From a virus: a stretch of DNA of 64,000 nucleotides. The translations under genes and the position numbers were made by a program. The notes under the pieces were generated by a model that did no database searches, was not told the origin of the DNA, and saw only the letters and a program-made list of their open reading frames with translations. Numbering within the stretch: the first letter of the stretch is position 1; every line of letters begins with the position of its first letter. Of the stretch, positions 1 to 61,924 are shown one piece after another. The DNA is taken from IMG/VR virus record IMGVR_UViG_3300021389_000005, positions 62,362-126,361 of that record; one strand, 5' to 3'.

Positions 1-1
1 G

Positions 2-388
2 GTTAAAGTACTTATAAAAAGATACGAAGAAGAACTTATCGGATTAGGCATTAATAACATTGAAATTGTAAATGTTTTACCTATTGAAAACGAAAGTAGA
101 CCTTTACCAAAAACAGGGTACTATAAAGGAACACCTTTTGCTGGGACTTGGAATGAACGTACAGAATTAGTTAAAGAAATTAATACTGGAATAGAAGACA
201 TGGCACAAAGAAACAACTGGAAGGTTTATAAACACCCAGAAGTTTATTTTAACGCCAAAGGTGAATTAACTTTTGATGTAATGGAAAAACCTAAATCTGT
301 ACATATATCCAGAGAATATTATAGATGGAACATGGAAAAAAACGAAGCAAATAAAAATTTAATTAAACAAACACTATCTTTATTTTAA
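2..388 (+). CDS. 5'-truncated CDS, possible SGNH/GDSL-fold protein of the DNA-modification cluster
   Basis: The frame is open from base 2 (VKVLIKRYEEELIGLG...LPIENESRPLPKTGYYKGTPFAG...) through the listed 200..388 ORF. The C-terminal ...FNAKGELTFDVMEKPKSVHISREYY resembles the G-x-L...DxxH end of SGNH proteins. Confidence 0.45.
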   Translation, partial: VKVLIKRYEEELIGLGINNIEIVNVLPIENESRPLPKTGYYKGTPFAGTWNERTELVKEINTGIEDMAQRNNWKVYKHPEVYFNAKGELTFDVMEKPKSVHISREYYRWNMEKNEANKNLIKQTLSLF

Positions 389-537
389 TGAAAGCAGACG
401 AAAAATTCAACATAGAAATTACCTACAACGGATCAGGTAAAACCGAAACAATAGTAATAGAAACTAAAGACATCGAGTGGTCAATGACACAATTTCAAAG
501 AAATAGACCATCGTTTAATTGGAAAATTATAGATTAA
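388..537 (+). CDS. small hypothetical protein (49 aa, MKADEKFNIEITY...)
   Basis: Read manually. ATG overlaps the upstream TAA and the stop lies 1 nt before the next ATG. Confidence 0.6.
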   Translation: MKADEKFNIEITYNGSGKTETIVIETKDIEWSMTQFQRNRPSFNWKIID

Positions 538-538
538 A

Positions 539-1336
539 ATGCAAATATCTCCAAATGAAATAGCTAGAATAGCACAAATAGCATTTGTTCTAGAACCTAT
601 AGCTAATAAACCTGGATTAACAACTAGATATGCCGATAGGAATAGAAACTTAAAGCTAGAAAACTTCCTAGTAGCTGGTATTAATACAGGAGATTCATTT
701 AGAGAATTAGCAAAACGAGTTTACGAATCTAAAGATTTACCAATAACGTATGATATTGCACTACAAGCTCAAAAAGATTCATTTAAAAATAGACAAGGTA
801 GTAGACTTATATATGGCGGTATAATTAGTTTATTTCCATTGATCATAACACAAACACATATCCGGTCAACTGATCCATATGCAATTCTAAGCAATGTAGA
901 AGATGTATTAAAACAAACACACAGAGAAGATGCAGTACATCTTCAAGAGTTAGAAAACTATGCTTATAGTTTTGGTATTAATCATAAACAATATATGTTT
1001 GAAGTAAAGGATGAATATGAAAATGTCTGGGATTATTTAGAAAAAGATTTGATATCAATAGGAGAAATAACACAAACACATTGGAAGGACAGAGCTAAAA
1101 CAGGATCATCGAATAAAGAAATATTGAATGGATATCCTATTGTAAAGGCCATGTTAGATATTTATTACAGTACTATAAAAAATAAAGAATGGCGAGGAAT
1201 AAGTCAAACAACAGAAGAAATAGATTTCTTAATAAGAAGAGAATTTCCAAATGCACACATTCAGTGGTTAGCAGATCTACATGTATGTTTGATGTATTTG
1301 ATCTTATGTCATGAAAATAAAGAATTTTTTGTATAA
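539..1336 (+). CDS. CitG/MdcB-family (triphosphoribosyl-dephospho-CoA synthase-like) protein, archaeal-type, divergent
   Basis: The N-terminus EIARIAQIAFVLEPIANKPGLTTR..D....ENFL, central GIISLFPL, T.REDA, KEILNGYPI and C-terminal ADL match the CitG pattern (LLEV..PKPG.V...D....F; G...L..PL; E..NGF; PG..ADL). Confidence 0.65.
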   Translation: MQISPNEIARIAQIAFVLEPIANKPGLTTRYADRNRNLKLENFLVAGINTGDSFRELAKRVYESKDLPITYDIALQAQKDSFKNRQGSRLIYGGIISLFPLIITQTHIRSTDPYAILSNVEDVLKQTHREDAVHLQELENYAYSFGINHKQYMFEVKDEYENVWDYLEKDLISIGEITQTHWKDRAKTGSSNKEILNGYPIVKAMLDIYYSTIKNKEWRGISQTTEEIDFLIRREFPNAHIQWLADLHVCLMYLILCHENKEFFV

Positions 1337-1348
1337 AATAAAAAAGCA

Positions 1349-2557
1349 ATGAACATAACAACAACCAAATATTACGATGAATTCTTAAGATATTTTGAGC
1401 TAGCCAAAAAACAGCAAGATCTAAGTAATCTTGGTCATGTTCCACATGCAGAATCAAAACTAGATGACGAACTAATGCATCACATAGAATTATATGATGT
1501 AGTAGAACGTAAATATGCTGGATTTTCCCAAATAATCAATGACTGTTTTTATGGTTGGAATTCAGATCATCCATATTGGTCAAGAATGGAAGCAGGATTA
1601 TACACACCACAGCGAATGGAAGTGGCCACTAATTGGAATTCTAAGAGAGACGAATTTGGCTTAGAAGAATGGCTTTACATCTTTATACTTCACAGAGTAT
1701 GTGGATCTGCCATTAATTATGCTACTAAGCCTTCAGGATATCACAACACTATTTTATTTAATTTACACGAATGTGAAACTATAGAAGAAATGTGTGAAGT
1801 GATCAAACATCATCCTACACCCTTTTATACTTCAGTTGGTTATCAATTTCCAGCATTTCCAAAACCACCAAAACCAGAAGTTAATGAAGATTCATTCGTT
1901 GGCATGTCAGGTTTTACAAAACCAGAATATGTGTATAAAAGAGGTGGAGATTATTTCTTATGTGAATTTGCACCAAGAATGGCCAGAGACATGGCAAACT
2001 TCTTAAGAGAAGGTGGTAAAAAAGACTTAAGAGAATTGGGTGAATGGATGTTTAAGTGGAATGCAGATAATGGCTTAAGAGCTTATAGATTTCAATATGC
2101 TGCAGTTATTGCAGATGTTTGTGATTGGTACCCTGAATTTATGAATAGAGAATCAATGTTCTATTATGGTACTAACGCAGTGGAATGCATTGGCTATCTT
2201 GCAGATCCTGTAGAAAAGAAAGGTAAGAAGTCTGAAGAGTTTTTAGATGCAGTAATGACAAAGATTTATGAAGATACAGGCTCACTTCCGTATAATGCAG
2301 AAGATGTAGCATGTGACTTTATCAGATGGATAGAAAACTATTTGAGACCTGGAAAAGATTATGCACATATAAACATGGACACTTTGTGGAATTCTTCTTC
2401 GATTATAGATCATCCATATGGTAGGCAAAAAGCTATGTTAGATTTAGGTTTAGTAGAAACATTCAATGACATGACTCAATTTCCATCAGACGACAAAGTA
2501 TTACAAGGGGCAGGAGTCTCGGTTGAAGAGTATAAAAAAATGGTAGCAAAAATATGA
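1349..2557 (+). CDS. aGPT-PPlase / HhH-glycosylase-like DNA base hypermodification protein (paralog 1)
   Basis: Motifs YDVVERKYAGF, ILHRVCGS, FYTSVGYQ, FQYAAVIADV, YYGTNAVECI and YNAEDVACDFIRW parallel the F.N..R / GPGA..GL / D.E..LCEF.KY layout of the family. It is followed by a paralog and a PLP enzyme. Confidence 0.6.
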   Translation: MNITTTKYYDEFLRYFELAKKQQDLSNLGHVPHAESKLDDELMHHIELYDVVERKYAGFSQIINDCFYGWNSDHPYWSRMEAGLYTPQRMEVATNWNSKRDEFGLEEWLYIFILHRVCGSAINYATKPSGYHNTILFNLHECETIEEMCEVIKHHPTPFYTSVGYQFPAFPKPPKPEVNEDSFVGMSGFTKPEYVYKRGGDYFLCEFAPRMARDMANFLREGGKKDLRELGEWMFKWNADNGLRAYRFQYAAVIADVCDWYPEFMNRESMFYYGTNAVECIGYLADPVEKKGKKSEEFLDAVMTKIYEDTGSLPYNAEDVACDFIRWIENYLRPGKDYAHINMDTLWNSSSIIDHPYGRQKAMLDLGLVETFNDMTQFPSDDKVLQGAGVSVEEYKKMVAKI

Positions 2558-3660
2558 GTGAAGAAGTAAAAGAAATCAAAAAAGAAATTAAGCAAGCACC
2601 CGATCAAGGTGTTTTGTTTACATTTGATGATGATATCACACAAGAGTACAGTAACATCACTTATGACGGAACTAATACAAATATAAAATTTAAGAAGAAG
2701 AAACCTGCAGAAAGTTGGATGAAAGACTGGTCAGAAGAATTGAGATTAGCTAAATTCTTTGAATTCTGTCATGAGTTTGATAAGCGAGAAGATAGATTAC
2801 TATTAGAAGATTATCAAATATTTTCCCATAGATTACACTGGCATGAACATCCTTATTGTTATATGATGCAACATGAGACAGATCTAGAAAAATTACTTTA
2901 TTATACTATTGTGTTTTCATTCTCTAACGAACATTGGGGAACCATTACTAAATTAATTAATCAAGGTGAAGAAAAGACTAGAGCACATTTTGTAGAAAAT
3001 AGACATGCTAGGAATGATTTATTTCAGATCTATTATCCTAAAGGTACAATAGTTAAAGATTGGTTAATTGAAGGACCTAAAAAAGCAGCTAAAGACATGG
3101 CTCATATTCTAGAAGATTTAGAAAGACCATACACAATGATGGAGTTTGCTAAATTATTAGAAGCTTATTTTAAAGAACATCAAAACTTTAGATCACCTTT
3201 ATATCCATGCAAAAACACAGCAAGATATGTAGCTATGAGTAGACCAGATCTTGTTGATCCTGAATCTATTTTATTCGGAGGTACTGGACATTTTGATGGT
3301 ATGCAACAAATATTCGGTGGAGTTAATCTTAATGGTAAAGTAAAATATTCTATTGACTCAGATGGACAATTTATTGCAGAGAATAAACATGCTGAAGAAT
3401 GGCTAAGACAAATGGATGTACTTGTAAATCATCCAAATAATCCAATGGAAAGTCAAAAGTATTTAAACGTAGAAGATAAAACATGTTTCTTCTATAAACA
3501 CATTGCAATTAGTCATGGCATAAAATCACCAACAAAAAGAATTCCATATACATGGATATTTGATGGTAAATTTAATTTAGCTAAGAATCCAGATAAAGAA
3601 ATTAATGTTAACGCAGATACTACTCGACATTTATGGGGTAGAGATTATCCAAACGAATAA
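2554..3660 (+). CDS. aGPT-PPlase / HhH-glycosylase-like DNA base hypermodification protein (paralog 2)
   Basis: FFEFCHEFDKREDRLL..YQIFSHRLHWHEH, GGTGHFDGMQQIFGG and NVEDKTCFFYKH follow the same layout as paralog 1. ATGA overlap with the upstream gene. Confidence 0.55.
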   Translation: MSEEVKEIKKEIKQAPDQGVLFTFDDDITQEYSNITYDGTNTNIKFKKKKPAESWMKDWSEELRLAKFFEFCHEFDKREDRLLLEDYQIFSHRLHWHEHPYCYMMQHETDLEKLLYYTIVFSFSNEHWGTITKLINQGEEKTRAHFVENRHARNDLFQIYYPKGTIVKDWLIEGPKKAAKDMAHILEDLERPYTMMEFAKLLEAYFKEHQNFRSPLYPCKNTARYVAMSRPDLVDPESILFGGTGHFDGMQQIFGGVNLNGKVKYSIDSDGQFIAENKHAEEWLRQMDVLVNHPNNPMESQKYLNVEDKTCFFYKHIAISHGIKSPTKRIPYTWIFDGKFNLAKNPDKEINVNADTTRHLWGRDYPNE

Positions 3661-3663
3661 AAT

Positions 3664-4560
3664 ATGGCACACGATAAACACACAACAAGTTCAATGAATC
3701 AAGATTTAAATCTTATGATGCCTAATAGACAGGCATGGTTAGATTTAGCAGGAGATTGGCAAGATCCACTAGATGATCCAATTATTGTGAATCATGAAGG
3801 ATTTAATGTAGTAAGAGATGATATGATGGGCTTTGGATCTAAATGTAGATTTGGAGATATCTTAGTACAGAAAGCACCGACCGATACATTAGTATATGTA
3901 CAACCTAGATTTGGATTCGCAGGAATTTCTCTTGCATACTTAGCAAAAAAATATAATAAGAAATTAGTATTATTTATGCCATCTGGTAAAGTAATATCAG
4001 ATCATCAAGCCATATGTATTGAAAGAGGTGCTATTGCTAAATTTAGAAGAATCGCAGCAATGCCTAATTTAAATAGAATTGCAAAACAATGGGCAGAAGA
4101 TAACAACGCTACATTTATTCCACTAGGACTTAAACATGAATTGGTAACTGCAGCTGCGGTAAAAGTTGCATATGATGTAGCAGAAAAACACGGATATCCG
4201 GAAGAAGTATGGTCAGCAATATCAACTGGAGTTTTACAACGCTCTTTACAAATTGCATGGCCAGATGCTGAATTTAATGCAGTTGCAGTTTCTAGAAATA
4301 TTCAGAACGGTGAATTGGGTAGAGCTAAAGTTTGGTCTCATCCAAAGGCATTTGCATCAGATGTAAAACCAGAATTTGCCCCTCCGTTTCCATCAGCAAT
4401 GAACTACGATGCAAAAGCTTGGGAATTTATGGTTAAGCATGGAAATCAAGGAGCTTGGTTTTGGAATGTAGGTGGACAACCTTACCCAGAATCAGAAGAA
4501 ACTAAAGAAAAAACAAATTCAAAAAGAGAATGGGGAGAAGTTTTAGAAATAGACAAATAA
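3664..4560 (+). CDS. PLP-dependent enzyme, fold type II (like the PLP enzymes of phage thymidine-hypermodification clusters)
   Basis: VVRDDMMGFGSKCRF (PLP lysine), GFAGISLAYLA, WSAISTGVL and PPFPSAMNYDAKAW...FWNVG. Confidence 0.8.
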   Translation: MAHDKHTTSSMNQDLNLMMPNRQAWLDLAGDWQDPLDDPIIVNHEGFNVVRDDMMGFGSKCRFGDILVQKAPTDTLVYVQPRFGFAGISLAYLAKKYNKKLVLFMPSGKVISDHQAICIERGAIAKFRRIAAMPNLNRIAKQWAEDNNATFIPLGLKHELVTAAAVKVAYDVAEKHGYPEEVWSAISTGVLQRSLQIAWPDAEFNAVAVSRNIQNGELGRAKVWSHPKAFASDVKPEFAPPFPSAMNYDAKAWEFMVKHGNQGAWFWNVGGQPYPESEETKEKTNSKREWGEVLEIDK

Positions 4561-4611
4561 AAACTGAAACTATCTCAAATAAGATCATAGGAATAATATA
4601 CAAAAAAGAAC

Positions 4612-5076
4612 ATGGCGAACATAGACAACAAATGCGCAGATCTTGATATTCAAGATTATCACAAAGATACCAAAGACACTTTTGGTTTACTCTTTGACAA
4701 ACAAAAAGAATTACAAGCTAGATTAGGTTTTGACTTTAAAGGTTGGAGCATTAAAGAGATTGCAGATTTCTGGATGGTGAATAAACATGCAATGAGCGAC
4801 GAGCTTAATGAAATGTTTGATGCACTTGGAGGAATTAACGACGGAATCGGCAATGCAGGTTGGAAATATTGGAAAAAGGATAATGCTAAGACTCCTGAAA
4901 TGAAAATTGAAGATCTTAGTGAAGAAGACAAATTAGAGTTATTTTATGAGTGGATTGACGGTCTTCATTTTTATATGAACTTTGCAATTTCAATTGGCAT
5001 GACAAGTAAAGACATTGTTAACTTGTACATGGCAAAGAACGCAGAGAATCACGACAGACAAGAACGAGGATATTAA
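4612..5076 (+). CDS. dimeric dUTPase / dCTP pyrophosphatase (T4 gp56-like, all-alpha NTP-PPase)
   Basis: DELNEM..., WKYWK, EWIDGLHF and YMAKNAENHDRQERGY. Confidence 0.85.
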   Translation: MANIDNKCADLDIQDYHKDTKDTFGLLFDKQKELQARLGFDFKGWSIKEIADFWMVNKHAMSDELNEMFDALGGINDGIGNAGWKYWKKDNAKTPEMKIEDLSEEDKLELFYEWIDGLHFYMNFAISIGMTSKDIVNLYMAKNAENHDRQERGY

Positions 5077-5097
5077 TCAACCAACACACTCAATCAT

Positions 5098-6501
5098 ATG
5101 CTATTAGATATAGAGCAAAAAGAAAACGAAGTCATAATCAGTTATTACGATAAAGAAGGCAAAGTATCATTTAAAAGATATTCTGTTAACAAATTTGAAA
5201 ATTGGGTAGTTACTGAAGAAAAGGATCGTTGGAAAGATATTAAATTTAGAAACTGGGATAATCGCCCAATTAAGAGATCTATCTCAAGAAGTTTTAATAA
5301 ATTTAGTTTGCTCTATTTTATGGATTCTCTACCACAAAAGGATCAAGATGAAATCTTCGAATTTAATATGCCACGCACATACTTTGTGGATATTGAAACT
5401 GAAATTGTAGATGGTTTCCCAAAAGCAGAAGAAGCTAAAACCAGAATTCTATCATTCTCTATCATTACACCTGAACGTAAAGCAATTGTTTTAGGTTTAG
5501 AAGATATGAGTTCAGATCAAATCAAAAAGATTGAAGATGATACCAATGCTCATTTTAAAGATTATGATCAGGATTGGGAATTCAGTTATTACAAGTTTGA
5601 TGACGAGTATAACATGGTATATACATTCTTACATAAGTTTTTACCTAAGTTCCCAATGATGACTGGTTGGAATTTCATCAACTATGACTGGCAGTATATA
5701 GTTAATAGGTGTAAAAGATTACAAATAGACCTGACTGACGTGGCAATCACTGGATCTTTAGATAGAAACGATAGTAGACCATTACACATGGGAATATTAG
5801 ATTATATGCAGCTATATGATAAATATGATAGATCAGTTGCTGTAAAAGAATCTAATTCATTAGACTTTGTATCTAGCGCAGTATTAGATGTTGCAAAGAT
5901 TAAATACACTGGTGGTTTACAAGAACTATACGAAAATAACTTCCAAAAATATATTTACTATAACGTGGTCGATTCATGTTTAGTATATTATATAGATAAA
6001 CAACTTAGATCAATGGAAGTACTATTGACATTAGCAACTATAACTAGAATGCCACTTTACAAAGCAGCATCTCCAGTGGCAGTAACAGAAGCGCTTATAG
6101 CTAGAAAGCTAATCGGTCAAAATAAAAAAATTGGAATGGAATGGAATAAAGAAGATGCAAAGAAAGACGGTAAATTTGAAGGAGCATTCGTTAAACAACC
6201 AATTGTAGGTTATTACTCTGGAGTTTCAGCGTTTGATTTTGCATCTCTATATCCATCAATTATGCGTCAATTTAATATATCTCCGGATGCATTTGTTGAA
6301 CAAGTAAATGAAATGGATATTCCAGAAAGAAGAAAAGATAAAGACGTAATCGTCTGTGAAAACGGAGTTGTTTATAAGAAAGAAGATAGTATTCTTAAAA
6401 AAATATTGGCAGATTTATATGGCCAACGTAAAGAATATAAAAAGACTTCTTATGAATATTATGAAAAAGCCCACGAACTAGAAAAAAAATTAAAGTCATA
6501 A
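5098..6501 (+). CDS. gp43A: family B DNA polymerase, N-terminal subunit (3'-5' exonuclease, motif A, first fingers helix; gp43A-like)
   Basis: ExoI FVDIET, ExoII GWNFINYDWQYI, ExoIII YNVVDS and motif A FDFASLYPSIM. It ends after LKKILADLYGQRKEYKK and lacks motifs B and C. Confidence 0.9.
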   Translation: MLLDIEQKENEVIISYYDKEGKVSFKRYSVNKFENWVVTEEKDRWKDIKFRNWDNRPIKRSISRSFNKFSLLYFMDSLPQKDQDEIFEFNMPRTYFVDIETEIVDGFPKAEEAKTRILSFSIITPERKAIVLGLEDMSSDQIKKIEDDTNAHFKDYDQDWEFSYYKFDDEYNMVYTFLHKFLPKFPMMTGWNFINYDWQYIVNRCKRLQIDLTDVAITGSLDRNDSRPLHMGILDYMQLYDKYDRSVAVKESNSLDFVSSAVLDVAKIKYTGGLQELYENNFQKYIYYNVVDSCLVYYIDKQLRSMEVLLTLATITRMPLYKAASPVAVTEALIARKLIGQNKKIGMEWNKEDAKKDGKFEGAFVKQPIVGYYSGVSAFDFASLYPSIMRQFNISPDAFVEQVNEMDIPERRKDKDVIVCENGVVYKKEDSILKKILADLYGQRKEYKKTSYEYYEKAHELEKKLKS

Positions 6502-6527
6502 ATTTAGAATCTCATGAATAATAAGCC

Positions 6528-6535
6528 GATATATA
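6528..6535 (+). promoter_or_regulatory. putative late-type promoter GATATATA upstream of nrdB
   Basis: The same octamer precedes more than 10 structural genes in this window. Confidence 0.5.
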
Positions 6536-6661
6536 ATAACACTAGCAGCGCTGCTATTATTCTTACATACATCTAAATTATAGATTAGACTGGGTCTTAA
6601 CTAAAGGCCCATTGTAGTCTCAACTGGATTCTGTAAAAAAACTAAACAAAATAATAGCAAT

Positions 6662-7672
6662 ATGTCAAATCTCTTTAAAGAACGTCTAGAATATAAACCG
6701 TTCGAATACCCTGAATATTACACCGAAGGTTGGCTTAAACAAGCACAGGCTTTCTGGCTACACACTGAAATCTCAATGCAAGGTGATGTAAAAGACTGGA
6801 ATGAAAACCTAATGCCACATGAAAAGAACTTAGTAGGCAATATTCTTTTGGGTTTCGCCCAAACCGAATGCGCGGTATCTGATTACTGGACAAACATGGT
6901 TACCAGTTGGTTTCCTAAACATGAAATTAGACAAATGGCTATGATGTTCGGTTCACAAGAAACTATACACGCTGTTGCATATTCATATCTTAATGAAACT
7001 TTGGGTTTGGAGGATTTCGCAGCATTTCTTCATGAGCCTGCAACTGCCGAAAAATTTGAATTTTTAACTTCAACAACAGCTGATTACACACATGAAGATT
7101 TACAAACAAATCCTGTAGCAAGAAGGGAAGTAGCAAGATCATTGGCTATTTTCAGTGCATTTGCAGAAGGTGTTTCTTTATATTCATCGTTTGCAGTACT
7201 TTACTCGTTTCAAATGAGAAACTTATTAAAAGGTATTGGACAACAAATGAAGTGGTCTGTAAGAGATGAATCATTACATAGTAAAATGGGATGTCAGTTG
7301 TTTAGAGAGATGTGTAATGAATATCCTGAACTATTTGAAGAGATTCATGCAGATGTACTTAAAGCAGCCGAATACATGGTTGAAATGGAACACAAGTTTA
7401 TTGATAAAATGTTTGAGCAAGGGGATCTTGCAAATATGGAAGCAGAAAATCTAAAACATTTTATTGTTAAAAGAGCTAACGAAAAAATCGCTGAATTAGG
7501 ATATAAAGAAGGTCCATTTATGGAATTAGATAGTGAAAAGGCTAGTCATTTAGATTGGTTCTATCATTTAACAGGTGGACATACACACACAGACTTTTTT
7601 GCTATCAGACCTACTGATTATGCAAAAGCAGGAGAAGACGAGAATTGGGACGAGGACGACTTATTCGATTAA
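6662..7672 (+). CDS. nrdB: class Ia ribonucleotide reductase beta subunit
   Basis: QAFWLHTE, FAQTE, ETIHAVAYS (radical Tyr), EGVSLYSSF, RDESLH and HTDFFAIRPTDY. Confidence 0.95.
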   Translation: MSNLFKERLEYKPFEYPEYYTEGWLKQAQAFWLHTEISMQGDVKDWNENLMPHEKNLVGNILLGFAQTECAVSDYWTNMVTSWFPKHEIRQMAMMFGSQETIHAVAYSYLNETLGLEDFAAFLHEPATAEKFEFLTSTTADYTHEDLQTNPVARREVARSLAIFSAFAEGVSLYSSFAVLYSFQMRNLLKGIGQQMKWSVRDESLHSKMGCQLFREMCNEYPELFEEIHADVLKAAEYMVEMEHKFIDKMFEQGDLANMEAENLKHFIVKRANEKIAELGYKEGPFMELDSEKASHLDWFYHLTGGHTHTDFFAIRPTDYAKAGEDENWDEDDLFD

Positions 7673-7686
7673 TATAAATAATAAAA

Positions 7687-9519
7687 ATGAACAAAGAAGA
7701 TAAAGTAAATTACGGAGCGTCCTTAGGTTGGGAGCTAGGTGTAGATTTCCCAACATGGGGAAACACAGAGATATATGTTAAAACAATAAGCAAAGGATAT
7801 TGTTACCAAGATGAAACACCTAAAGATGCATACTGGAGAGTTGCAACTACGATTGCTAAAAGATTAGGCAAACCTGAACTTGCATCGAAATTCTTTGATT
7901 ATATATGGAAGGGTTGGTTAAATCTAGCCTCACCTGTGCTTTCAAATACTGGATTAGAAAGAGGTTTACCTATTTCATGTTTTGGTATTGATGTTGCGGA
8001 TTCAATTCACGATATCGGTGCTAAAAACCTAGAGATGATGCTACTTGCCAAACATGGCGGTGGTGTAGGTACAGGAATTAATCAAATTAGACCAGCGGGT
8101 GCAAAAATTACAGGAAACGGTACATCAGATGGAGTTGTACCTTTTTGCAAAATATTTGACTCTACGATACTTGCCACTAATCAGGGTTCTGTTCGTAGAG
8201 GAGCAGCAAGTGTTAACATTGATATTGAACATCCTGATTTCTGGGAATGGTTAGAAATTAGAGAACCTAAGGGTGATGTCAACAGACAATCATTAAATTT
8301 ACACCAATGTGCAGTAATACCAGATGGTTTTATGCAAAAAGTTGAAGCTGGTGATAAAGAGTCTCGCAAAAAGTGGGCTGCGCTCTTAAGGAAGCGTAGA
8401 TCTACAGGAGAGCCATATATCATGTACAAAGGAAATGTCAATAGAGCAAATCCAGAGGCATACTCTAAGAATGGATTAAAAGTTTATATGACTAACATTT
8501 GTTCAGAAATAACATTACATACTGACGAGAATCACTCATTTGTTTGTTGCCTTTCTTCTGTAAATTTAGCAAAGTATAATGAATGGAAAGATACTGATCT
8601 GATTTACACTGCAACTTGGTTTTTAGATGGCGTTATGGAAGAGTTTATCCAAAAGGCTAAATTTATGAGAGGCTTTGAAAACTCAATTAGATCTGCAGAA
8701 AAAGGTAGAGCTTTAGGGCTTGGTGTATTAGGATGGCATACATATTTACAAGAAAAGAACATTCCGTTTGATTCTTTATCAGCTCAATTCGAAACACGTA
8801 AAATCTTTTCACAATTAAAGATAGAATCTGAAAGAGCATCAAGAGATCTAGCTACAGAATATGGCGAACCATTATGGTGTGTAGGAACTGGAATGAGAAA
8901 TACTCACTTAAGAGCTATTGCTCCAACAGTAACTAATTCTAAACTTAGTGGAAATGTTTCTCCAGGTATTGAGCCATGGGCAGCAAATCTATTAACAGAA
9001 CAAACAGCTAAAGGTACTTTCATTAGAAAGAATCCAACATTAGAACAAGTTTTAGATACAATAGGTAAGAATACTAAATCAACATGGGATAAAATACTAG
9101 AAGATGGTGGATCAGTATTAGGATTACCATGGATTGAAGATTACTTTGTCTCATCATTTTCAGATAACGAAGGAACTTCAGGTATTCAAAAGCCACTAAC
9201 TAAAAAGCAATTAGAAAAACTACCAACATTAGAACAAGCTGATTATATTCCAATGTCTGATGTATTTAGAACCTTCAAAGAAATTAATCAATTAGATTTA
9301 GTAAGACAAGCAGGTATTAGACAACAATATGTTGATCAAGCTGCAAGTTTAAATCTAGCGTTTCCAAAAGAGGCAGAACCTAAATTTATTAATCAAGTAC
9401 ATTTAGAAGCATATAGAAAGGGTGTAAAAACACTTTACTACATGAGAACAGAATCAGTACTTAGAGGAGATATCGCTGCGGCAGCTACAGATCCAGATTG
9501 TGCTGCATGTGATGGATAA
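7687..9519 (+). CDS. nrdA: class Ia ribonucleotide reductase alpha subunit (short, no ATP cone)
   Basis: ASPVLSNTG..RGLPISCF, TNICSEI, CCLSSVNL, AIAPT, KTLYY and C-terminal CAACDG. Confidence 0.95.
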   Translation: MNKEDKVNYGASLGWELGVDFPTWGNTEIYVKTISKGYCYQDETPKDAYWRVATTIAKRLGKPELASKFFDYIWKGWLNLASPVLSNTGLERGLPISCFGIDVADSIHDIGAKNLEMMLLAKHGGGVGTGINQIRPAGAKITGNGTSDGVVPFCKIFDSTILATNQGSVRRGAASVNIDIEHPDFWEWLEIREPKGDVNRQSLNLHQCAVIPDGFMQKVEAGDKESRKKWAALLRKRRSTGEPYIMYKGNVNRANPEAYSKNGLKVYMTNICSEITLHTDENHSFVCCLSSVNLAKYNEWKDTDLIYTATWFLDGVMEEFIQKAKFMRGFENSIRSAEKGRALGLGVLGWHTYLQEKNIPFDSLSAQFETRKIFSQLKIESERASRDLATEYGEPLWCVGTGMRNTHLRAIAPTVTNSKLSGNVSPGIEPWAANLLTEQTAKGTFIRKNPTLEQVLDTIGKNTKSTWDKILEDGGSVLGLPWIEDYFVSSFSDNEGTSGIQKPLTKKQLEKLPTLEQADYIPMSDVFRTFKEINQLDLVRQAGIRQQYVDQAASLNLAFPKEAEPKFINQVHLEAYRKGVKTLYYMRTESVLRGDIAAAATDPDCAACDG

Positions 9520-11113: not shown

Positions 11114-12322
11114 ATGAATATCGAAGAGCTAGAAAATAAATCTATCGAGGAATTAAATGATAATGAGGCGAAGCTGCTTGTAGATCACTACAAGCAGCTT
11201 TCAGCCAAATACACTGCATATGAACAAGCAGTTAAGTTAACACTAAACTCGATCTACGGAGCCTTCGGTAATAAGTGGTTCCACTTTTTTAATATTGACA
11301 TTGCCGAGTCAATTACAAAACAAGGTAAAAACGCAATTCTTTATTCAGAAACTATTCTCAACAAATATGTTAATGAGTTTTGGCACAAAGATGCTGCAGT
11401 ACATTCTCACTTTGGAATTAAAGTAAAAGGTAAAATAGAAAAGCCAGCAGTAATTTATATTGATACAGATTCATGTTATGTACAGTTTCAAGATTTATAT
11501 GAATCTATAATTTGGCCAGAAGAAACAGAGAAAATGGAAATCGATGTGTTTATTTTAGCACTTTATGGTTTCAGACTTAGAGATTACATTACTAAGTGTA
11601 TGGAGAAATATGCAGATAAAAGAAACTCAGATAATTATTTGATGTTTGAATTAGAAGCGCTTGCATATAATGGTATTTGGATGTCTAAGAAAAAGTATAT
11701 TCAGAACATTGCATGGGATGATAAATTAGAAACCACAGACAGGCATACTTCATTAAAGAAAATTAAAACAATTGGTTTTGATACTATTCAATCATCTACG
11801 CCTAAATTTGCAAGAGAGAAACTAGTTGAAGCTCTTAAAATTATATTTAAAAGTAGAGTAACTCCAACAGCAGAAGATCTTCAAACATTAGTTGTTTTCA
11901 TGAAAGAAACAAAAAAGCAATTTAAACTTGCAGATATTGACGAGATTTCTTTTAATAGAAGGACTAACAATATTGACAAATATATTGTTGATGATCAGAA
12001 AGAATTTCAAATAGGTCTAAAATGTCCAGCAAACGTTAAAGCAGCCGGATATTACAATTACTTATTGAATAACAATAAAAAATATAAAAACAAATATAAG
12101 GTTATCGGTAACGGTGAAAAACTAAAGATCTACAATTGTAAATCACCAATATCTGAAGTATATGCATATATGCCAGGAGATCATCCTTATGAAATTGCAC
12201 CAGAAATTGATTACGATACTCAATTTGAAAAAGCAATGATCGATCCTCTTAATAGAGTATTAACAGCGATTGGTCTACAAACACTAGATACTAACCTAAT
12301 TTACGCATCGTCGTTATTTTAA
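11114..12322 (+). CDS. gp43B: family B DNA polymerase, C-terminal subunit (motifs B and C, thumb; gp43B-like)
   Basis: Motif B QAVKLTLNSIYGAFGN, AESITKQG, motif C YIDTDS, KKKY, SSTP and C-terminal clamp-binding-like SSLF. Confidence 0.9.
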   Translation: MNIEELENKSIEELNDNEAKLLVDHYKQLSAKYTAYEQAVKLTLNSIYGAFGNKWFHFFNIDIAESITKQGKNAILYSETILNKYVNEFWHKDAAVHSHFGIKVKGKIEKPAVIYIDTDSCYVQFQDLYESIIWPEETEKMEIDVFILALYGFRLRDYITKCMEKYADKRNSDNYLMFELEALAYNGIWMSKKKYIQNIAWDDKLETTDRHTSLKKIKTIGFDTIQSSTPKFAREKLVEALKIIFKSRVTPTAEDLQTLVVFMKETKKQFKLADIDEISFNRRTNNIDKYIVDDQKEFQIGLKCPANVKAAGYYNYLLNNNKKYKNKYKVIGNGEKLKIYNCKSPISEVYAYMPGDHPYEIAPEIDYDTQFEKAMIDPLNRVLTAIGLQTLDTNLIYASSLF

Positions 12323-13880: not shown

Positions 13881-14169
13881 CCAGGATAATCTACCCATAA
13901 AATACATTATGGGCATTGAAAAAGATTTACCTGAATATCCAACCGGCTTCGATATACTTTACAAAGAGATTCAATTGTGTGTTAGAATGCCAGATAGACA
14001 TAAAGGCAACTTTACACTACATGCTCTAAAAACCTATAGGTTCCAAGAAACAGAAGAGTCTAAATTATTAGATTCTATAAATGATCTAATAAACTTAGGT
14101 ATAGTAGAAACAGTAAACACTGAGAAAGGTAAACTTTCTTGGAAAATAATTCAAAATCCATTCCAATGA
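13870..14169 (+). CDS. hypothetical protein (possible winged helix)
   Basis: ORF track; LLDSINDLINLGIVE followed by a beta hairpin. Confidence 0.5.
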   Translation: MQINQDNLPIKYIMGIEKDLPEYPTGFDILYKEIQLCVRMPDRHKGNFTLHALKTYRFQETEESKLLDSINDLINLGIVETVNTEKGKLSWKIIQNPFQ

Positions 14170-14750
14170 TAGCAGTATTTGATAATTTTATAAAAGATGA
14201 ATCTCTTTTAGCAGAGATAAGATCCAACATACCATATTTATTTAATGATCCAGGTGTATACAAGTGGTATGACGGATGGTTTAATAATTCTCCTGCAAAT
14301 AATACTGCAAAGAAAATAATTAAACAGATATGGGCCGATAATTGTCCAATAACTGAAACATTCAATATTTCAGGTTTTGAATATTGGACCGGAATTCAAG
14401 AAGCTAAAGGAATGAGCGATGAATGGGAAGATAATTTAGAAATGCATTTTGATAAAGATGAAGCTTGGTTTGAAAAAACAGGAGAAGTAAAAGCACCCAT
14501 AATAGGTTCTATTTATTATCCAGACCAAGAAGAATTTGAAGGAGGCATGCTAGAAATTTATACTAATGGTGAAGAGAATCCGCCTGAAATTGTTTACGCA
14601 AAACCAAATAGATTAATAATATTCAACGCAGGAAAAGATGTACATAGGGTTACAGTTGTTACAAAAGGCCAAAGGCTGGCAATTGCCATAAATTTATGGG
14701 AAGAAATACCTTATAGTAAACAAATCGGTAGGTTTAACATAGAAGGATAA
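14166..14750 (+). CDS. 2OG-Fe(II) oxygenase (prolyl-hydroxylase-like)
   Basis: HFD (HxD), FEGGMLEI, PNRLIIF and HRVTVVTKGQRLAIAINLW. The ATG at 14166 overlaps the upstream stop. Confidence 0.85.
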   Translation: MIAVFDNFIKDESLLAEIRSNIPYLFNDPGVYKWYDGWFNNSPANNTAKKIIKQIWADNCPITETFNISGFEYWTGIQEAKGMSDEWEDNLEMHFDKDEAWFEKTGEVKAPIIGSIYYPDQEEFEGGMLEIYTNGEENPPEIVYAKPNRLIIFNAGKDVHRVTVVTKGQRLAIAINLWEEIPYSKQIGRFNIEG

Positions 14751-53439: not shown

Positions 53440-54735
53440 ATGTACACAGATTTTCAACTCATATCAGATTTCGTTGAAGCATCAAATGCTTCTAATTCTA
53501 ACACAGCTAAATTAGAAGTGCTAAAAACATACACTCAATACGAGACAGTATGTAAAGCACTTAATTATACCTATGACACATATAAACAATATGGTGTTAC
53601 TTCTAAAAATTGTAAAAAGAATTCTGATTTAACTGGGCATCCTAACACATACGGAGATTTCTTTCTTTTACTTGATGATCTGAATGACAGAGTGGTCACA
53701 GGGCACAACGCAATTGCAAACGTTAATCAATACGTTAAAGAAAACCCGCTGTTTGAGGACTTAATCTGGAACATTCTGGATCGTAATCTTAAGACTAGAT
53801 CTACTGCATCTATGATTAATAAAGTAAAACCCGGCCTAATTCCTACATTCGATGTTGCACTCGCTCAAGCATATGACGAGAAGACTAAGAAAAAAGTAAA
53901 TTGGAATGATGGTTGGTATGTAAGTCGTAAACTTGATGGAGTTAGATGTCTTGGTATTATAGATGATCGCGGTGCAGTTAAATTTTACTCTAGACAAGGT
54001 AAAGAATTCTTAACATTAGATTCTCTTAAGCCTTCTATTGAAGCTCTCGGTCTTTCGAATATGGTATTTGATGGCGAAGTTTGTATGGTAGATGAAAATG
54101 GCAACGAAGATTTCCAAGGTATTATTAAAGAGATCAAAAGAAAAGATCACACTATTGCAAATCCATTCTATCACATTTTTGATTTATTGACAATTAAAGA
54201 ATTTAACGATAAAGAATCTATTACTACATTCAGTGAAAGATACACTAACATTAGATCTTATATTCTAGACGGTGATGAATTCATTAGTTGTCTTGATCAA
54301 GTCTTAGGAGATGACATGGTTATGGAAAGAATGATGGAATTATCTAAAGAAGGTGGATGGGAAGGACTAATGCTTCGTAAGAATACAACATATAAAGGTA
54401 AGCGTTCTAACGATGTTCTTAAAGTTAAGAAATTCTATGACGAAGAATACACAGTTGTTGATCTTGAAAATGATACACACCGAGTTATTGTTGATGGTAC
54501 AGAAGTAGAAGAAGAGATGCTAAAGAACGTTATCATTGAACATAAAGGAAATCGAGTTCAAGTTGGTAGTGGCTTTAATCATGAACAACGTAGACATTAT
54601 TTTCAAAATCCTAATCAGATTTTAGGAAAACAAATCACAGTTCAATACTTTGAAGAAACAACAAATATGAATGGAACTCACTCACTAAGATTTCCAGTAA
54701 TTAAAGCGGTGTATGAAACACCAAGAGATATTTAA
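53440..54735 (+). CDS. gp30: ATP-dependent DNA ligase
   Basis: SRKLDGVR, FDGEV, EGLML, YKGKRS..LKVK, VGSGF and SLRFP. Confidence 0.93.
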   Translation: MYTDFQLISDFVEASNASNSNTAKLEVLKTYTQYETVCKALNYTYDTYKQYGVTSKNCKKNSDLTGHPNTYGDFFLLLDDLNDRVVTGHNAIANVNQYVKENPLFEDLIWNILDRNLKTRSTASMINKVKPGLIPTFDVALAQAYDEKTKKKVNWNDGWYVSRKLDGVRCLGIIDDRGAVKFYSRQGKEFLTLDSLKPSIEALGLSNMVFDGEVCMVDENGNEDFQGIIKEIKRKDHTIANPFYHIFDLLTIKEFNDKESITTFSERYTNIRSYILDGDEFISCLDQVLGDDMVMERMMELSKEGGWEGLMLRKNTTYKGKRSNDVLKVKKFYDEEYTVVDLENDTHRVIVDGTEVEEEMLKNVIIEHKGNRVQVGSGFNHEQRRHYFQNPNQILGKQITVQYFEETTNMNGTHSLRFPVIKAVYETPRDI

Positions 54736-54746
54736 ATATAAATAAC

Positions 54747-54971
54747 ATGAGATATACAGTAACTTACGAAGTTTACATTGAAGGCGACAATGACAAACAT
54801 GCTCTTTCTAAAGCAGAACTAATAGCCAAAAATCAAAACGCATTACACCCAAGTCAAAGATGGGATGTACATAAATTACATATCACCCCATTTGCATCAT
54901 TAGATATAAAAGAAGTTGATATAGAAGCGATCAGAACAGAAAAATTATTAAAAGAAGATTTACCATTTTAA
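54747..54971 (+). CDS. hypothetical protein
   Basis: ORF track. Confidence 0.6.
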   Translation: MRYTVTYEVYIEGDNDKHALSKAELIAKNQNALHPSQRWDVHKLHITPFASLDIKEVDIEAIRTEKLLKEDLPF

Positions 54972-54973
54972 TT

Positions 54974-55825
54974 ATGCCAGAATTAGCCGAACTTAAATTA
55001 ACATCAGATTACGTAAACACATGTTCAGAAGGGGCAACATATACACGTGTAGAAAAGAATCCTCAACATAAAGGGGCAGAACTAGATATTCCGTTTAAAT
55101 ACTTTAGTATTAAATCAGAAAGTAAAGGTAAAGAAATTGTACTAACCATCAAAGATGAAGATAGTAAAGCCTTTATTCCTATTCGCATTACTATGGGAAT
55201 GTCAGGGCATTTTCAATTAACAAATACTGGCCAGGAACCTAAACATGCACATCTCAAGTTTCATCGTAAAGATGGCACTACACTGTCATTTGTAGATGTA
55301 CGCAGATTTGGTAAATGGACACAAGGTGTAGCATGGAATGAGGGTAGAGGACCAGATCCAACATCAGATTTTGATGCTTTCTTTTTAAACATTATGACCA
55401 ACCTTACAAAAAGAACATTTCGCAAACCACTTTATGAAGTTCTTATGGATCAAAAATGGTTTAATGGTATTGGCAATTATTTAAGAGCTGAAATTATATT
55501 CAGAGCAGAGAACGTTGATCCATTTCTTCCAGCTTCTCAACAAATTGCAAAATACCCAAAGATCTTGGAATTGTGTAGAGATATTCCAATGTTGGCATAT
55601 GCCAAAGGTGGTGGAAGCATTAGAGATTGGGACAATCCATTTGGATCTGATGCAATTCAAGAAAAATTTATGCTCTGTTATGGAAACAAAACCATGGAAA
55701 CTCGTATAGATTCTAAGAAGCGTAGATTTTGGTATGATTCTAAATGGAACGCACCTATGCATAGAGACGATTTAAAGGATTGGGATTACTATAGCGGCTT
55801 ACCAAGCCCAGCAGCATATAAATAA
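54974..55825 (+). CDS. Fpg/Nei DNA glycosylase/AP lyase, NEIL1-like (zincless finger)
   Basis: N-terminal MPE, KGKE, GMSG, FVDVRRFGKW, GRGP and H2TH DQKWFNGIGNYLRAEI; no Cys4 zinc finger. Confidence 0.9.
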   Translation: MPELAELKLTSDYVNTCSEGATYTRVEKNPQHKGAELDIPFKYFSIKSESKGKEIVLTIKDEDSKAFIPIRITMGMSGHFQLTNTGQEPKHAHLKFHRKDGTTLSFVDVRRFGKWTQGVAWNEGRGPDPTSDFDAFFLNIMTNLTKRTFRKPLYEVLMDQKWFNGIGNYLRAEIIFRAENVDPFLPASQQIAKYPKILELCRDIPMLAYAKGGGSIRDWDNPFGSDAIQEKFMLCYGNKTMETRIDSKKRRFWYDSKWNAPMHRDDLKDWDYYSGLPSPAAYK

Positions 55826-55945
55826 AACAAATATGAGTAACGAAGAAATTAGTACAGTAGCAGAAAAAATAGTAGCAGCAATAAATAAGACTACTAATGA
55901 TTACGATGCTAGAGAAAAAGTTTCAGAAATATTATCAAAACAAAG

Positions 55946-57778: not shown

Positions 57779-58546
57779 ATGAAAATTGATAAAATTTACA
57801 TATTAGCAATAGATCATACTCCTGAAAAAGTAAAGTCTATTGAAAATAAATTAGAGACTATCGGCTTTGATGACAATACGCCATATGAGATTTTATACGG
57901 ACACAATGGTTGGAAATCAGAACTACCTGATAATTGCAATGTTTATAAGAATTGGGCCCAACCAGAAAGTTGGAATGATTTTTGGAAATTAGAACCTCAA
58001 CCTGGTGAAATAGGATGTGCACTTTCACATAATATGGCTTGGAAAAAAATCATAGAAGATAATATTTCCAGAGCATTAATCTTAGAAGAAGATTTTGTTT
58101 TTAAAAAATCATTTAAAGACTTAGAAGAACCTTCTGAAGGTTGGCCTTATAAATGGGATTATTTGACACTAGGAAGATATGTATTTAATTATGATAACGA
58201 TATTAAGTTAAACGATACCTATTGTATTCCTTCTTTACATTATAATATGCACGCATATGTGTTAACACACTTAGGAGCTCAAAAGCTTATAAGTTATAAA
58301 TTAGAAGAAAACATATTTCCATGTGATGAATTCATAACAGCTACTTACATGAATCACAGGAGATGGGATATTGAAGAAATGTTCCCCGTTAAATTGATCA
58401 ATGCACTTGCTACAAATGAAAAGTGGATAGGACAAACTTCAGATGCAGAATCTACAACAGTAAGTGCTCACACCAAAACATTTGAAAATAAAGATAGAAA
58501 TTCTTTATTAGAAAGATCTCGACTAAAAGAAACAAACAAAAACTAG
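57779..58546 (+). CDS. glycosyltransferase family 25
   Basis: GEIGCALSH..AW..I, ALILEEDF, HAYVLT..GAQKL and PCDEF. Confidence 0.85.
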   Translation: MKIDKIYILAIDHTPEKVKSIENKLETIGFDDNTPYEILYGHNGWKSELPDNCNVYKNWAQPESWNDFWKLEPQPGEIGCALSHNMAWKKIIEDNISRALILEEDFVFKKSFKDLEEPSEGWPYKWDYLTLGRYVFNYDNDIKLNDTYCIPSLHYNMHAYVLTHLGAQKLISYKLEENIFPCDEFITATYMNHRRWDIEEMFPVKLINALATNEKWIGQTSDAESTTVSAHTKTFENKDRNSLLERSRLKETNKN

Positions 58547-58560: not shown

Positions 58561-59034
58561 ATGAAAATAATACTTGTAGGCAAGGCAGCTGCCGGAAAAG
58601 ACTTTTTAAAAAACAAACTTTCTCGCAAAGGATTTAAAGCGGGAGTAAGTCACACTACGAGATTGCCTAGAGAAAATGAAAAGAATGGCGAAGATTATTG
58701 GTTTATATCTCAAGAAAGATTTAAGACAATGATCGACGAAGGTAAATTCATTGAACACATGGAATTCAATGGTTGGTTTTATGGCCAAACTGAAGAAGAT
58801 TTTAATACTTCAGATGTTATGATCATGAGCAAAGACGGTTTAGATATGTTACCAAAAAAATACAGAAACGAATGTATTGTAATTTATTTAGATCCATCAA
58901 GAATAGAAAGATTTAATAGATTAGAATCTAGAAATGATTTAAACGATACTATTGTAAGACGAATGAACACAGATGATGAACAATTCAAAAGCTTTAGGGA
59001 TTATGACATCCGAATCTCTAACGCTGATTTTTAA
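58561..59034 (+). CDS. gmk: guanylate kinase-like nucleotide kinase
   Basis: GKAAAGKD, SHTTRLPRENE.NGEDYWF and FNGWFYG. Confidence 0.85.
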   Translation: MKIILVGKAAAGKDFLKNKLSRKGFKAGVSHTTRLPRENEKNGEDYWFISQERFKTMIDEGKFIEHMEFNGWFYGQTEEDFNTSDVMIMSKDGLDMLPKKYRNECIVIYLDPSRIERFNRLESRNDLNDTIVRRMNTDDEQFKSFRDYDIRISNADF

Positions 59035-61326: not shown

Positions 61327-61411
61327 GCCGTTGTGATGGAATTGGTAGACATGACAGACTTAAAATCTGTTGGGCTGAAAGCCCGTGGCGGTTCGAGCCC
61401 GCCCAGCGGTA
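61327..61411 (+). tRNA. tRNA-Leu(TAA)
   Basis: Cloverleaf; ACAGA-CT TAA AA-TCTGT; long variable arm; GTTCGAG T-loop; no encoded CCA. Confidence 0.92.
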
Positions 61412-61420
61412 CTTAGATAT

Positions 61421-61494
61421 GGACCAGTAGCACAACTGGATAGTGCAGCACCCTTCTAAGGTGCCGGTTATAGGTTCGAATCCTATCTGGTTCA
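61421..61494 (+). tRNA. tRNA-Arg(TCT)
   Basis: GCACC-CT TCT AA-GGTGC; GTTCGAAT; no encoded CCA. Confidence 0.92.
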
Positions 61495-61499
61495 CAAAT

Positions 61500-61578: not shown

Positions 61579-61585
61579 ATAACTT

Positions 61586-61657: not shown

Positions 61658-61666
61658 CTAATTAAA

Positions 61667-61899: not shown

Positions 61900-61924
61900 C
61901 CCAAAGACAACTATGATTTATTAA

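Follow-up and report, generated by a model that had tools for sequence, protein, structure and literature searches.

A candidate kinase-less DNA hypermodification cassette in marine T4-like jumbo phages, with a CitG-like insertion in one sub-lineage

The systems closest to the locus described here are the thymidine hypermodification pathways of phages M6, PaMx11, ViI, and PhiW-14 and the 5-hydroxymethylcytosine (5-hmC) pathway of phage T4. The thymidine pathways, as described in PMC8989533 and PMC11472151, comprise a dUMP hydroxymethylase, a 5-hydroxymethyldeoxyuridine (5-hmdU) DNA kinase, an aGPT-Pplase2/amino-acid:DNA transferase, and a pyridoxal phosphate (PLP) decarboxylase. The T4 pathway consists of gp42, gp56, gp1, and the alpha- and beta-glucosyltransferases. 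Here we analyze a run of genes at the start of a 64,000-nt stretch of DNA (the window), which is bases 62362-126361 of the 126,361-bp IMG/VR record IMGVR_UViG_3300021389_000005 (CheckV completeness 43%). The run encodes, in order, an SGNH-domain protein (ORF1), a 49-residue product, a CitG-like protein, two helix-hairpin-helix (HhH) proteins (ORF3 and ORF4), a PLP enzyme (ORF5), and a gp56-like protein (ORF6), followed by a DNA polymerase. ORF1, the 49-amino acid (aa) open reading frame (ORF), and ORF3-ORF6 make up a cassette that is conserved among marine T4-like jumbo phages. On balance, we favor the view that this cassette hypermodifies a 5-hydroxymethylpyrimidine, most likely 5-hmC, in the phage's own DNA after replication. 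The original prediction, made from the letters of the window and a list of its reading frames, had proposed a hypermodification pathway that included the CitG-like protein and was framed around 5-hmdU. A hypermodification-type cassette, with relatives of amino-acid:DNA transferases and an M6 gp52-type PLP enzyme, is supported by our analysis; the parts assigned to CitG and to 5-hmdU are not.

The AlphaFold (AF2) model of ORF3 (1349-2557; 402 aa), built with 69 sequences in the alignment, has a pLDDT of 94.6 and shows an HhH-glycosylase fold. In a Foldseek-independent search of 48,161 PDB chains the top match was 8z2m_A, the 5-phosphomethyldeoxyuridine (5-PmdU) glycinyltransferase gp46 of PaMx11 (Z 9.7, root-mean-square deviation [rmsd] 4.1, 210 residues aligned, model residues 10-333 on chain residues 8-258). 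The next-ranked folds were DUF2419, AGOG, OGG, AlkA, and EndoIII, at Z 5-8.7. Foldseek against the PDB returned nothing at E ≤ 0.001, with 8z2n appearing at a probability of 0.18 only, and against BFVD it returned a 57%-identical uncultured-phage protein whose UniProt name is "Amino acid:DNA transferase domain-containing," together with weak matches to endonuclease III, the SP10 5-hmdU DNA kinase, and "Pplase1" proteins. The motif of the known transferases is also present. ORF3 contains E318-D-V-A-C322, in which E318, C322, and the following D323 are nearly invariant over the 69 sequences, and Glu318 and Cys322 are its putative catalytic residues; ORF4 (2554-3660; 368 aa) contains E307-D-K-T-C311, with E307, D308, and C311 invariant in 40 sequences. 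An E-T-x-x-C motif occurs in all six known transferases compared (M6 gp51, PaMx11 gp46, PhiW-14 gp109, Pam3 gp47, Rhodoferax gp14, and an Acinetobacter protein), the Cys of this Glu-x3-Cys motif being Cys247 in PaMx11 gp46, and E-H-T-L-C occurs in two of three clade-1/PF18723 proteins, the third of which, Pam3_50, has no such motif. M6 gp51 and ViI gp247 both require this Cys and this Glu (PMC8989533), and Cys247 of PaMx11 gp46 is the proposed C6 nucleophile (PMC11472151).

ORF3 and ORF4 nevertheless fall outside the Pfam families of these enzymes. Neither has a Pfam match (E ≤ 0.1) or a PHROG match, and PF18723 and PF18724 found nothing at E ≤ 10 across the whole 126-kb record; as positive controls, PF18724 finds M6 gp51 (E 1.4e-46) and PF18723 readily finds its M6 protein. 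The ORF3 family has 939 homologs among metagenome proteins, which reduce to 139 representatives at 50% identity. A Pfam scan of 30 of these left 29 without any family and gave one a sub-threshold match to MGDG_synth, and PF18724 matched none of 30 diverse ORF3 homologs at E ≤ 0.01. Profile hidden Markov models (HMMs) of the ORF3 and ORF4 families (A1 and A2) showed no link to M6 or Aeromonas proteins, hhalign against M6 gp51 alone or against alignments of the six transferases or the three clade-1 proteins stayed under 1% probability, the A1 profile had no match at E ≤ 10 among all PDB sequences, and tblastn with ORF3 found nothing in 50,697 phage records. Among protein-atlas neighbors of ORF3 and ORF4, PF18723/PF18724 is carried by a minority of members (in the Atlas clusters nearest to ORF4, PF18723 by 19-36% or PF18724 by 12-57%), which we treat as a lead only. 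The two proteins had originally been called aGPT-PPlase-like paralogs. The first part of that label finds support in the fold of ORF3 and the motif of both proteins but not in Pfam; the paralogy is moderately supported, being weak by BLASTP (E 0.21) and better by hhalign (probability 83%, E 9e-6, 130 columns spanning VDPxS...G...EDxxC). We therefore class ORF3 and ORF4 as a distantly related new clade, predicted to act as the amino-acid:DNA transferases do while lying outside their Pfam families.

The two genes downstream have more readily recognized relatives. ORF5 (3664-4560; 298 aa), a fold-type-II PLP enzyme, belongs to phrog_7093 (E 4.6e-39), the same PHROG that takes M6 gp52 (3.6e-159), a characterized PLP decarboxylase, and Pam3 gp43 (1.1e-71). 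Its Ser-Lys-x-Arg PLP site and C-terminal PFP..YD.KAW..FWN.G motif also align. Its Pfam PALP match lies below the cut-off (E 1.2e-4, 22 bits against 35), and against the PDB it gives at best weak cysteine-synthase matches (E 0.02). ORF6 (4612-5076; 154 aa) is a predicted gp56-type, all-alpha dCTPase/dUTPase, with matches to Pfam dUTPase_2 (PF08761; E 1.1e-8, 36 bits against a cut-off of 22.9) and phrog_173 (E 9.5e-23); phmmer found no match to it among PDB sequences. By tblastn it matches 1,446 phage records, the closest being annotated "dCTPase / dCTP pyrophosphatase / gp56" in T-even-type and Aeromonas phages (34-41% identity, E to 1e-23). Both family assignments agree with the original proposal of a fold-II PLP enzyme and a gp56-like dUTPase/dCTPase. 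The ORF5 family also occurs in a second, different DNA-modification context: an ORF5-type PLP domain lies within the 810-aa "DNA modification methylase" (gp1) of Erythrobacter phage R6L, near a PAPS-reductase-like gene, and in Microcystis phage Mae-JY30 such a domain follows two ParB/sulfiredoxin genes.

ORF1 is 353 aa long and begins 673 nt before the window, which holds its C-terminal 128 aa (2-388). Its AF2 model (pLDDT 92.4) has an N-terminal alpha/beta domain of unassigned fold followed by an SGNH/GDSL domain at residues 155-342. The latter matches GDSL esterases and acyltransferases at VIA Z 13.2-13.9 (4rsh: Z 13.2, rmsd 2.9, 153 aligned) and, by Foldseek, 3p94 (E 3e-5). Residues G162-D-S-H-S166, G208-N-I-D211, and H326, corresponding to SGNH blocks I, III, and V, are invariant; the Pfam Lipase_GDSL match is weak (E 0.024). 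The fold match and the invariant GDSHS and GNID uphold the label "SGNH-like" that had been given to the fragment. The T4 beta-glucosyltransferase family, PF09198, gave no match at E ≤ 10, and the fold searches with ORF1 were filled by the SGNH domain. ORF1 has 842 homologs among metagenome proteins and is a constant, sometimes fused, partner of ORF3: seven of the 139 ORF3-family representatives are ORF1-like/ORF3-like fusions of 639-790 aa whose N-terminal half matches the ORF1 fragment in the window (E 2e-36 to 2e-13). ORF1 homologs are also found by tblastn in 43 cultured-phage records at 30-38% identity (38 Aeromonas, three Tenacibaculum, and two Stenotrophomonas). In one of these, ORF233c of Aeromonas phage 31 (795 aa), homology to ORF1 covers the N-terminal 345 aa (HMM E 1.1e-95), and the tail matches PF18723 weakly (E 0.0036). 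Pfam titles PF18723 "5-hmdU DNA kinase, helical domain," and the 637-aa SP10 5-hmdU DNA kinase is among the PF18723-type proteins in the BFVD match list of ORF3. By analogy with this naming and that list, the fusion of ORF1 and ORF3 points to an arrangement like the one implied for the known system, in which a base-flipping helical domain would be joined to a catalytic module.

The association of these genes extends across many relatives. When IMG/VR was scanned for the ORF3 family, 588 ORF3-encoding stretches were confirmed, of which 80 loci were kept for BLASTP counts; many of these are short or cut contigs, so that counts of downstream genes are lower bounds. Within the 80 loci, ORF1 and ORF3 are each present in 79, ORF5 in 58, ORF6 in 51, the polymerase in 49, and ORF4, an optional member of the cassette, in 43; CitG is present in none. 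The commonest order is DUF6378, ORF1, small ORF, ORF3, (ORF4), PLP enzyme, gp56-like gene, polymerase. Other orders exist, namely ORF3-ORF4-PLP-ORF1 in L081 and L083-L085 and another shuffled arrangement in L070-L071, and therefore linkage of the genes outlasts their shuffling. The DUF6378 protein (103 aa; bases 61372-61683 of the record) lies immediately upstream of ORF1 in 71 of the 80 loci and may be part of the cassette; the PHROGs label of its family, "phosphofructokinase," is an apparent misnomer.

This linkage bears on the alternative that the HhH proteins are glycosylases, serve in repair or against restriction, or bind DNA without catalysis, and that the run is an ordinary set of nucleotide-pool and replication genes beside a polymerase. 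Such an explanation would fit a fold shared with OGG, AGOG, AlkA, and EndoIII (Z 5-8), the lack of Pfam membership, and the flanking replication genes. We nonetheless regard it as very unlikely, as the top structural match is a transferase rather than a glycosylase, the motif that hardly varies, Glu-x3-Cys, is that of the transferases, and the genes stay linked to those for the gp52-type PLP enzyme and the SGNH protein, fusions included.

The identity of the modified base was approached through the enzymes that would supply it. PF00303 matched none of our own set of 121 ORFs in the source record. Among ten relatives' records searched for a hydroxymethylase, three (G001, G003, and G010; two of the first five and one of the next five) encode a second, divergent thymidylate synthase (TS)-like protein. 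G001 is a complete genome of 256,444 bp with terminal repeats (100% complete), and both it and G003 also encode a canonical ThyA. By tblastn the G001 TS-like protein matches gp42 dCMP hydroxymethylases (about 30% identity, E 7e-15; Aeromonas L9-6, 3e-18) and the SP10 dUMP hydroxymethylase (2e-14), with td less similar (1e-6). The base-recognition position is Asp in T6 gp42 (NDY) and the Aeromonas protein, and Asn in canonical TS (FNI) and in all four dUMP hydroxymethylases compared (SP10, PaMx11, Pam3, and Rhodoferax). All three TS-like proteins of the relatives have Asp here (FDA, FDA, and TDI in G001, G003, and G010, respectively). From T4 gp42 and TS, we take this position to discriminate dCMP from dUMP. 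Together with the resemblance of ORF6 to gp56 dCTPases, this residue suggests that the modified base is probably cytosine, as 5-hmC, rather than thymine, in place of the 5-hmdU framing of the original prediction. The record also encodes a dCMP deaminase (bases 1670-2176), but T4 has one too, so this gene does not discriminate between the bases.

A DNA kinase, sought alongside the hydroxymethylase in following up the original prediction, has not emerged: no 5-hmdU DNA kinase was found in the 126-kb record, which is 43% complete, or in the complete 256-kb relative G001, and the hydroxymethylase is seen in relatives only. A kinase HMM built from four sequences, and weakened by one of them being a mis-called N-terminal ORF stretch of M6, found nothing in the record's own ORFs and gave one weak match (E 0.0011) in G001. 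A Pfam scan of G001 (150 of the 206 ORFs without a homolog in our record, at least 113 aa long) yielded two small AAA_33 proteins as kinase candidates.

A thymidine pathway starting from 5-hmdU, as in ViI, M6, PhiW-14, and SP10, with CitG and SGNH proteins as integral new steps, would agree with the membership of ORF5 in the M6 gp52 family, the presence of a dCMP deaminase gene, and the position of CitG in line 12 nt before ORF3; moreover, all characterized transferases of the superfamily act on 5-PmdU (PMC8989533). Against it stand the dCMP-type Asp in three of three extra TS-like copies of relatives where four dUMP hydroxymethylases have Asn, the match of ORF6 to gp56 dCTPases, the failure to find a 5-hmdU DNA kinase in our record or G001, and the absence of CitG from 80 of 80 loci. 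We consider this route distinctly unlikely.

Related evidence comes from cultured phages. According to PMC2993671, genes 42 and 56 are present in Aeromonas phages 44RR, 31, and 25 whereas a glucosyltransferase is not, and any other modification of their Hm-dCMP was left undetermined. The same glucosyltransferase-free phages also carry an ORF1-like gene.

The preferred reading, hypermodification of 5-hmC, can be cast as a sequence of steps. A gp42-like dCMP hydroxymethylase, seen in relatives only, and the ORF6 dCTPase would place 5-hmC into the DNA. ORF3, with ORF4 where present, would flip the base into its HhH-glycosylase-like pocket, where the conserved Cys of ORF3/ORF4 would attack C6 in the manner of Cys247 in PaMx11 gp46. 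The leaving group on the 5-methylene would then depart and be succeeded by a small nucleophile, most plausibly an amino acid, and ORF5, as a gp52-type PLP enzyme, would trim the adduct, probably by decarboxylation. The SGNH protein ORF1 would replace the P-loop DNA kinase that supplies the leaving group in known pathways; its role may be O-acylation of the hydroxymethyl group or the processing of an intermediate ester. We infer these chemical steps, the base, and the nucleophile from the folds, motifs, family memberships, linkage, and fusions described above.

Several points weigh against this proposal. The Z of the 8z2m match is middling for a helical protein, so that the ranking carries the weight, and the equivalence of ORF3 C322 with PaMx11 Cys247 is inferred from the motif and the aligned ranges. 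ORF4 is placed by its profile link to ORF3 and by its motif and is to that extent a putative member of the clade. By hmmscan, hmmsearch, and hhalign, ORF3 and ORF4 have no sequence link to PF18723 or PF18724. For the target base, the Asp/Asn distinction is a single alignment column, the ten relatives' records searched for the hydroxymethylase are nearly all fragments, and PF00303 is absent from the 126 kb of the record itself, which is 43% complete. One of the two AAA_33 P-loop proteins of G001 (128 and 239 aa) could be a base kinase. Finally, SGNH enzymes are not known to act on DNA.

The feature specific to this sub-lineage is the CitG insertion. The CitG-like protein (539-1336; 265 aa) matches Pfam CitG (PF01874) with 42.5 bits, where the cut-off is 27 (E 8.2e-11); residues 9-213 align with positions 1-195 of the 284-position profile. 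NCBIfam gives no match, and so no equivalog, at E ≤ 0.01, tblastn finds nothing in the 50,697 phage records, and phmmer finds nothing among PDB sequences. No CitX/MdcG, acyl carrier protein (ACP), citrate lyase, or malonate decarboxylase was detected among the 121 ORFs at E ≤ 0.001. In IMG/VR the gene occurs in only two contigs, L096 and L097, in the same slot and at 92% identity, with flanking genes 97-100% identical. Near relatives such as L013 (ORF1 99%, ORF3 98%, ORF4 100%) are without it. In L013, ORF3 begins ATGCAAATA; in the window, those nine bases open CitG instead, and ORF3 has a new start, ATGAACATA, 12 nt past the CitG stop. The insert therefore landed at the ORF3 start codon. Compared with L096, synonymous and non-synonymous codon changes number 21:21 in CitG, against 57:7 in ORF3, 39:3 in the PLP gene, and 37:1 in the polymerase, a pattern indicating that CitG is under constraint, but much less so than its neighbors, and evolves faster. 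The 90%-identity cluster of CitG has 24 members across many marine contigs, and it is therefore a real gene.

One sub-lineage has thus acquired CitG recently, in a position where other lineages carry accessory genes of their own, and the protein would be a tailoring enzyme added to the cassette or else a passenger unrelated to it. Its original description as a pathway component is not supported, since none of the 80 related loci has it and the contigs that do are just two, nearly identical to each other. The remark that CitG and SGNH proteins lie outside the characterized pathways fared better: searches of open-access text found no paper linking either to these pathways, none combining triphosphoribosyl-dephospho-CoA, phage, and hypermodification, and none combining hydroxymethylcytosine, hypermodification, phage, and SGNH. 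Of 21 open-access papers matching "cytosine hypermodification" and phage, the 15 listed concern TET or glycosyl routes, to judge by title and abstract.

The slots of the cassette in relatives show what else may be inserted. A LOG/TIGR00730-type phosphoribohydrolase-like gene occurs in 11 loci (e.g., L034:3943-4665), between ORF4, or else ORF3, and the PLP gene. A GT2 glycosyltransferase with a UDP-galactopyranose mutase occurs in five loci, including that of G001 (L076 / G001:C1:72122-74399), between the PLP and gp56-like genes. Other cargo includes an FkbM methyltransferase (L057), a homing endonuclease, and a NUDIX protein with a DAHP-synthase-family protein. The cassette is an insertion hot spot, with some cargo tailoring-like and some clearly unrelated, and it is because of this mixture that we rate participation of CitG in the modification as a doubtful, if real, possibility. 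The variable slots (CitG, LOG, GT2 with UDP-galactopyranose mutase, and FkbM) suggest that the modified bases form a family, each differing from its kin.

If CitG is a working add-on, it would transfer a 5-triphosphoribosyl group from ATP, releasing adenine in the way that CitG does when dephospho-CoA is the acceptor; here the acceptor would be a hydroxyl on the modified base or the small-molecule nucleophile, and the sub-lineage would carry a ribosyl-phosphate-bearing variant of the modification. We give this only tentative credence. Its Pfam match exceeds the cut-off; it was inserted exactly at the ORF3 start, in the same orientation and with a 12-nt spacer; the lack of a CitX/ACP partner among the 121 ORFs rules out the usual pathway; sister lineages hold sugar or ribose genes in their cassettes (GT2 and mutase in five loci, LOG in 11); and the gene recurs in the 24-member cluster on many contigs. 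Yet the same slots also hold unrelated cargo (the homing endonuclease, NUDIX, and DAHP-synthase-family proteins), the 21:21 codon changes contrast with 57:7, 39:3, and 37:1 in the neighbors, there is no NCBIfam match, and the assignment is that of a Pfam profile. A more specific version, which we think unlikely, is that CitG adds an ATP-derived 5-triphosphoribosyl group, later trimmed to phosphoribosyl or ribosyl, to the hydroxyl of 5-hmC or of an amino-acid-derived side chain. Were it so, the product would be a ribosyl-phosphate-decorated cytosine in DNA, a glycosylation made without a nucleotide-sugar pool, and the CitG variant would parallel the GT2/UDP-galactofuranose and LOG-type variants of sister lineages. 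A 614-aa protein encoded at bases 54045-55889 of the record, with a C-terminal cytidylyltransferase-like domain and a weak Citrate_ly_lig match, was considered as a partner for CitG and rejected, as it is present in 34 related loci, none of which has CitG.

The layout of the locus agrees with the earlier description, all six ORFs noted there being present on the plus strand at the positions given. The 150-nt "gap" at 389-538 is occupied by the 49-aa ORF (388-537, plus strand), which overlaps the ORF1 stop codon by one base; its product has no PHROG match and differs at two residues from the L096 copy, and its reading frame is kept in relatives, being intact in four of four aligned sequences. 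CitG and ORF3 are separated by 12 nt, ORF3 and ORF4 overlap by 4 nt, ORF4 and ORF5 are 3 nt apart, ORF5 and ORF6 51 nt apart, and ORF6 and the polymerase gene 21 nt apart. A promoter and terminator scan of positions 1-6700 returned 25 promoter-like sites against 34.9 in shuffled sequences and no intergenic terminator within the cassette. Downstream, the cassette is bounded by the gene for the N-terminal part of a family-B DNA polymerase (5098-6501, plus strand), which matches Pfam DNA_pol_B_exo1 and DNA_pol_B as well as phrog_2062 (E 2.5e-80). This polymerase is divided over two ORFs, the C-terminal part lying at 11114-12322, and between its halves are the small and large subunits of ribonucleotide reductase (RNR; 6662-7672 and 7687-9519) and two ORFs without known function; the order of polymerase N-terminal part followed by RNR is the same in related loci.

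The record as a whole is that of a T4-like myovirus by Pfam (gp23, gp20, gp32, the gp44 clamp loader, and UvsW), with further matches to RNR, a RecA/UvsX-like protein, a T4-type terminase, dCMP deaminase, and the split family-B polymerase. Its capsid protein is nearest to those of huge uncultured phages and Bacteroidota phages, and we assign the source as an uncultured marine T4-like jumbo phage. Seven tRNA genes (Leu-taa, Arg-tct, Asp-gtc, Glu-ttc, Gln-ttg, Ile-tat, and Lys-ttt) are clustered at 61327-61998 of the window. Elsewhere in the window are genes for a 2OG-Fe(II) oxygenase (14139-14750), an Fpg/Nei-type DNA glycosylase (54974-55825), a GT25 glycosyltransferase (57779-58546), and a guanylate-kinase-like protein (58561-59034), which could bear on nucleotide or DNA modification. 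The complete relative G001 also encodes Acb1-like and Tad3-like anti-defense proteins and an O-carbamoyltransferase (L114:8665-9201, L114:9516-10292, and L117:4458-6122), as well as NAMPT, Thg1, RNA ligases, and ClpB/ClpP.

Taken together, the cassette is probably a kinase-less version of the hypermodification pathways whose target is most likely cytosine and which would add an undescribed group. The pathways described in PMC8989533 and PMC11472151 all begin at 5-hmdU and require a dedicated DNA kinase; if our proposal is true, the cassette extends that chemistry to cytosine and activates the hydroxymethyl group in another way. It would also offer a candidate answer to the question left open by Petrov et al. 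in 2010 of how DNA is protected in Aeromonas phages 44RR, 31, and 25 (PMC2993671), and as these phages are cultured, the idea is testable. With 939 ORF3 and 842 ORF1 homologs in metagenomes and 588 IMG/VR stretches, the cassette is widespread, and a family of distinct bases would bear on restriction evasion and on enzymatic DNA-labeling tools.

A comparison with described systems shows both shared and divergent features. The N-terminal part of Aeromonas phage 31 ORF233c and its relatives in 44RR2.8t, 25, and Aes508 (phrog_17781/phrog_13881) is like ORF1, but the C-terminal half is weakly PF18723-like and is not detected by the ORF3-family HMM, and within the 13-kb region read there is no adjacent PLP gene. 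With CitG/MdcB, the ATP:dephospho-CoA triphosphoribosyl transferase, the protein in the cassette shares a match to PF01874 above the gathering score; unlike CitG/MdcB, it has neither an equivalog match nor the partner genes, and it is phage-borne, inside a DNA-modification cassette. The T4 5-hmC pathway resembles the present system in the gp56-like dCTPase of the cassette, the gp42-like hydroxymethylase of relatives, and the T4-like core genes. Unlike T4, PF09198 is not matched (E ≤ 10), and tailoring would be done by transferase-like, PLP, and SGNH enzymes. The thymidine pathways differ from the cassette in the Pfam-level membership of their proteins and in their 5-hmdU DNA kinase, for which none was found here, whereas the cassette has an SGNH protein as a constant partner and is accompanied by dCMP-type rather than dUMP-type precursor enzymes in a T4-like jumbo myovirus. 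Like those pathways, it combines an HhH-fold transferase-like protein bearing Glu-x3-Cys with a PLP enzyme of the M6 gp52 PHROG, its transferase-like genes can pair as paralogs, and its accessory genes vary combinatorially.

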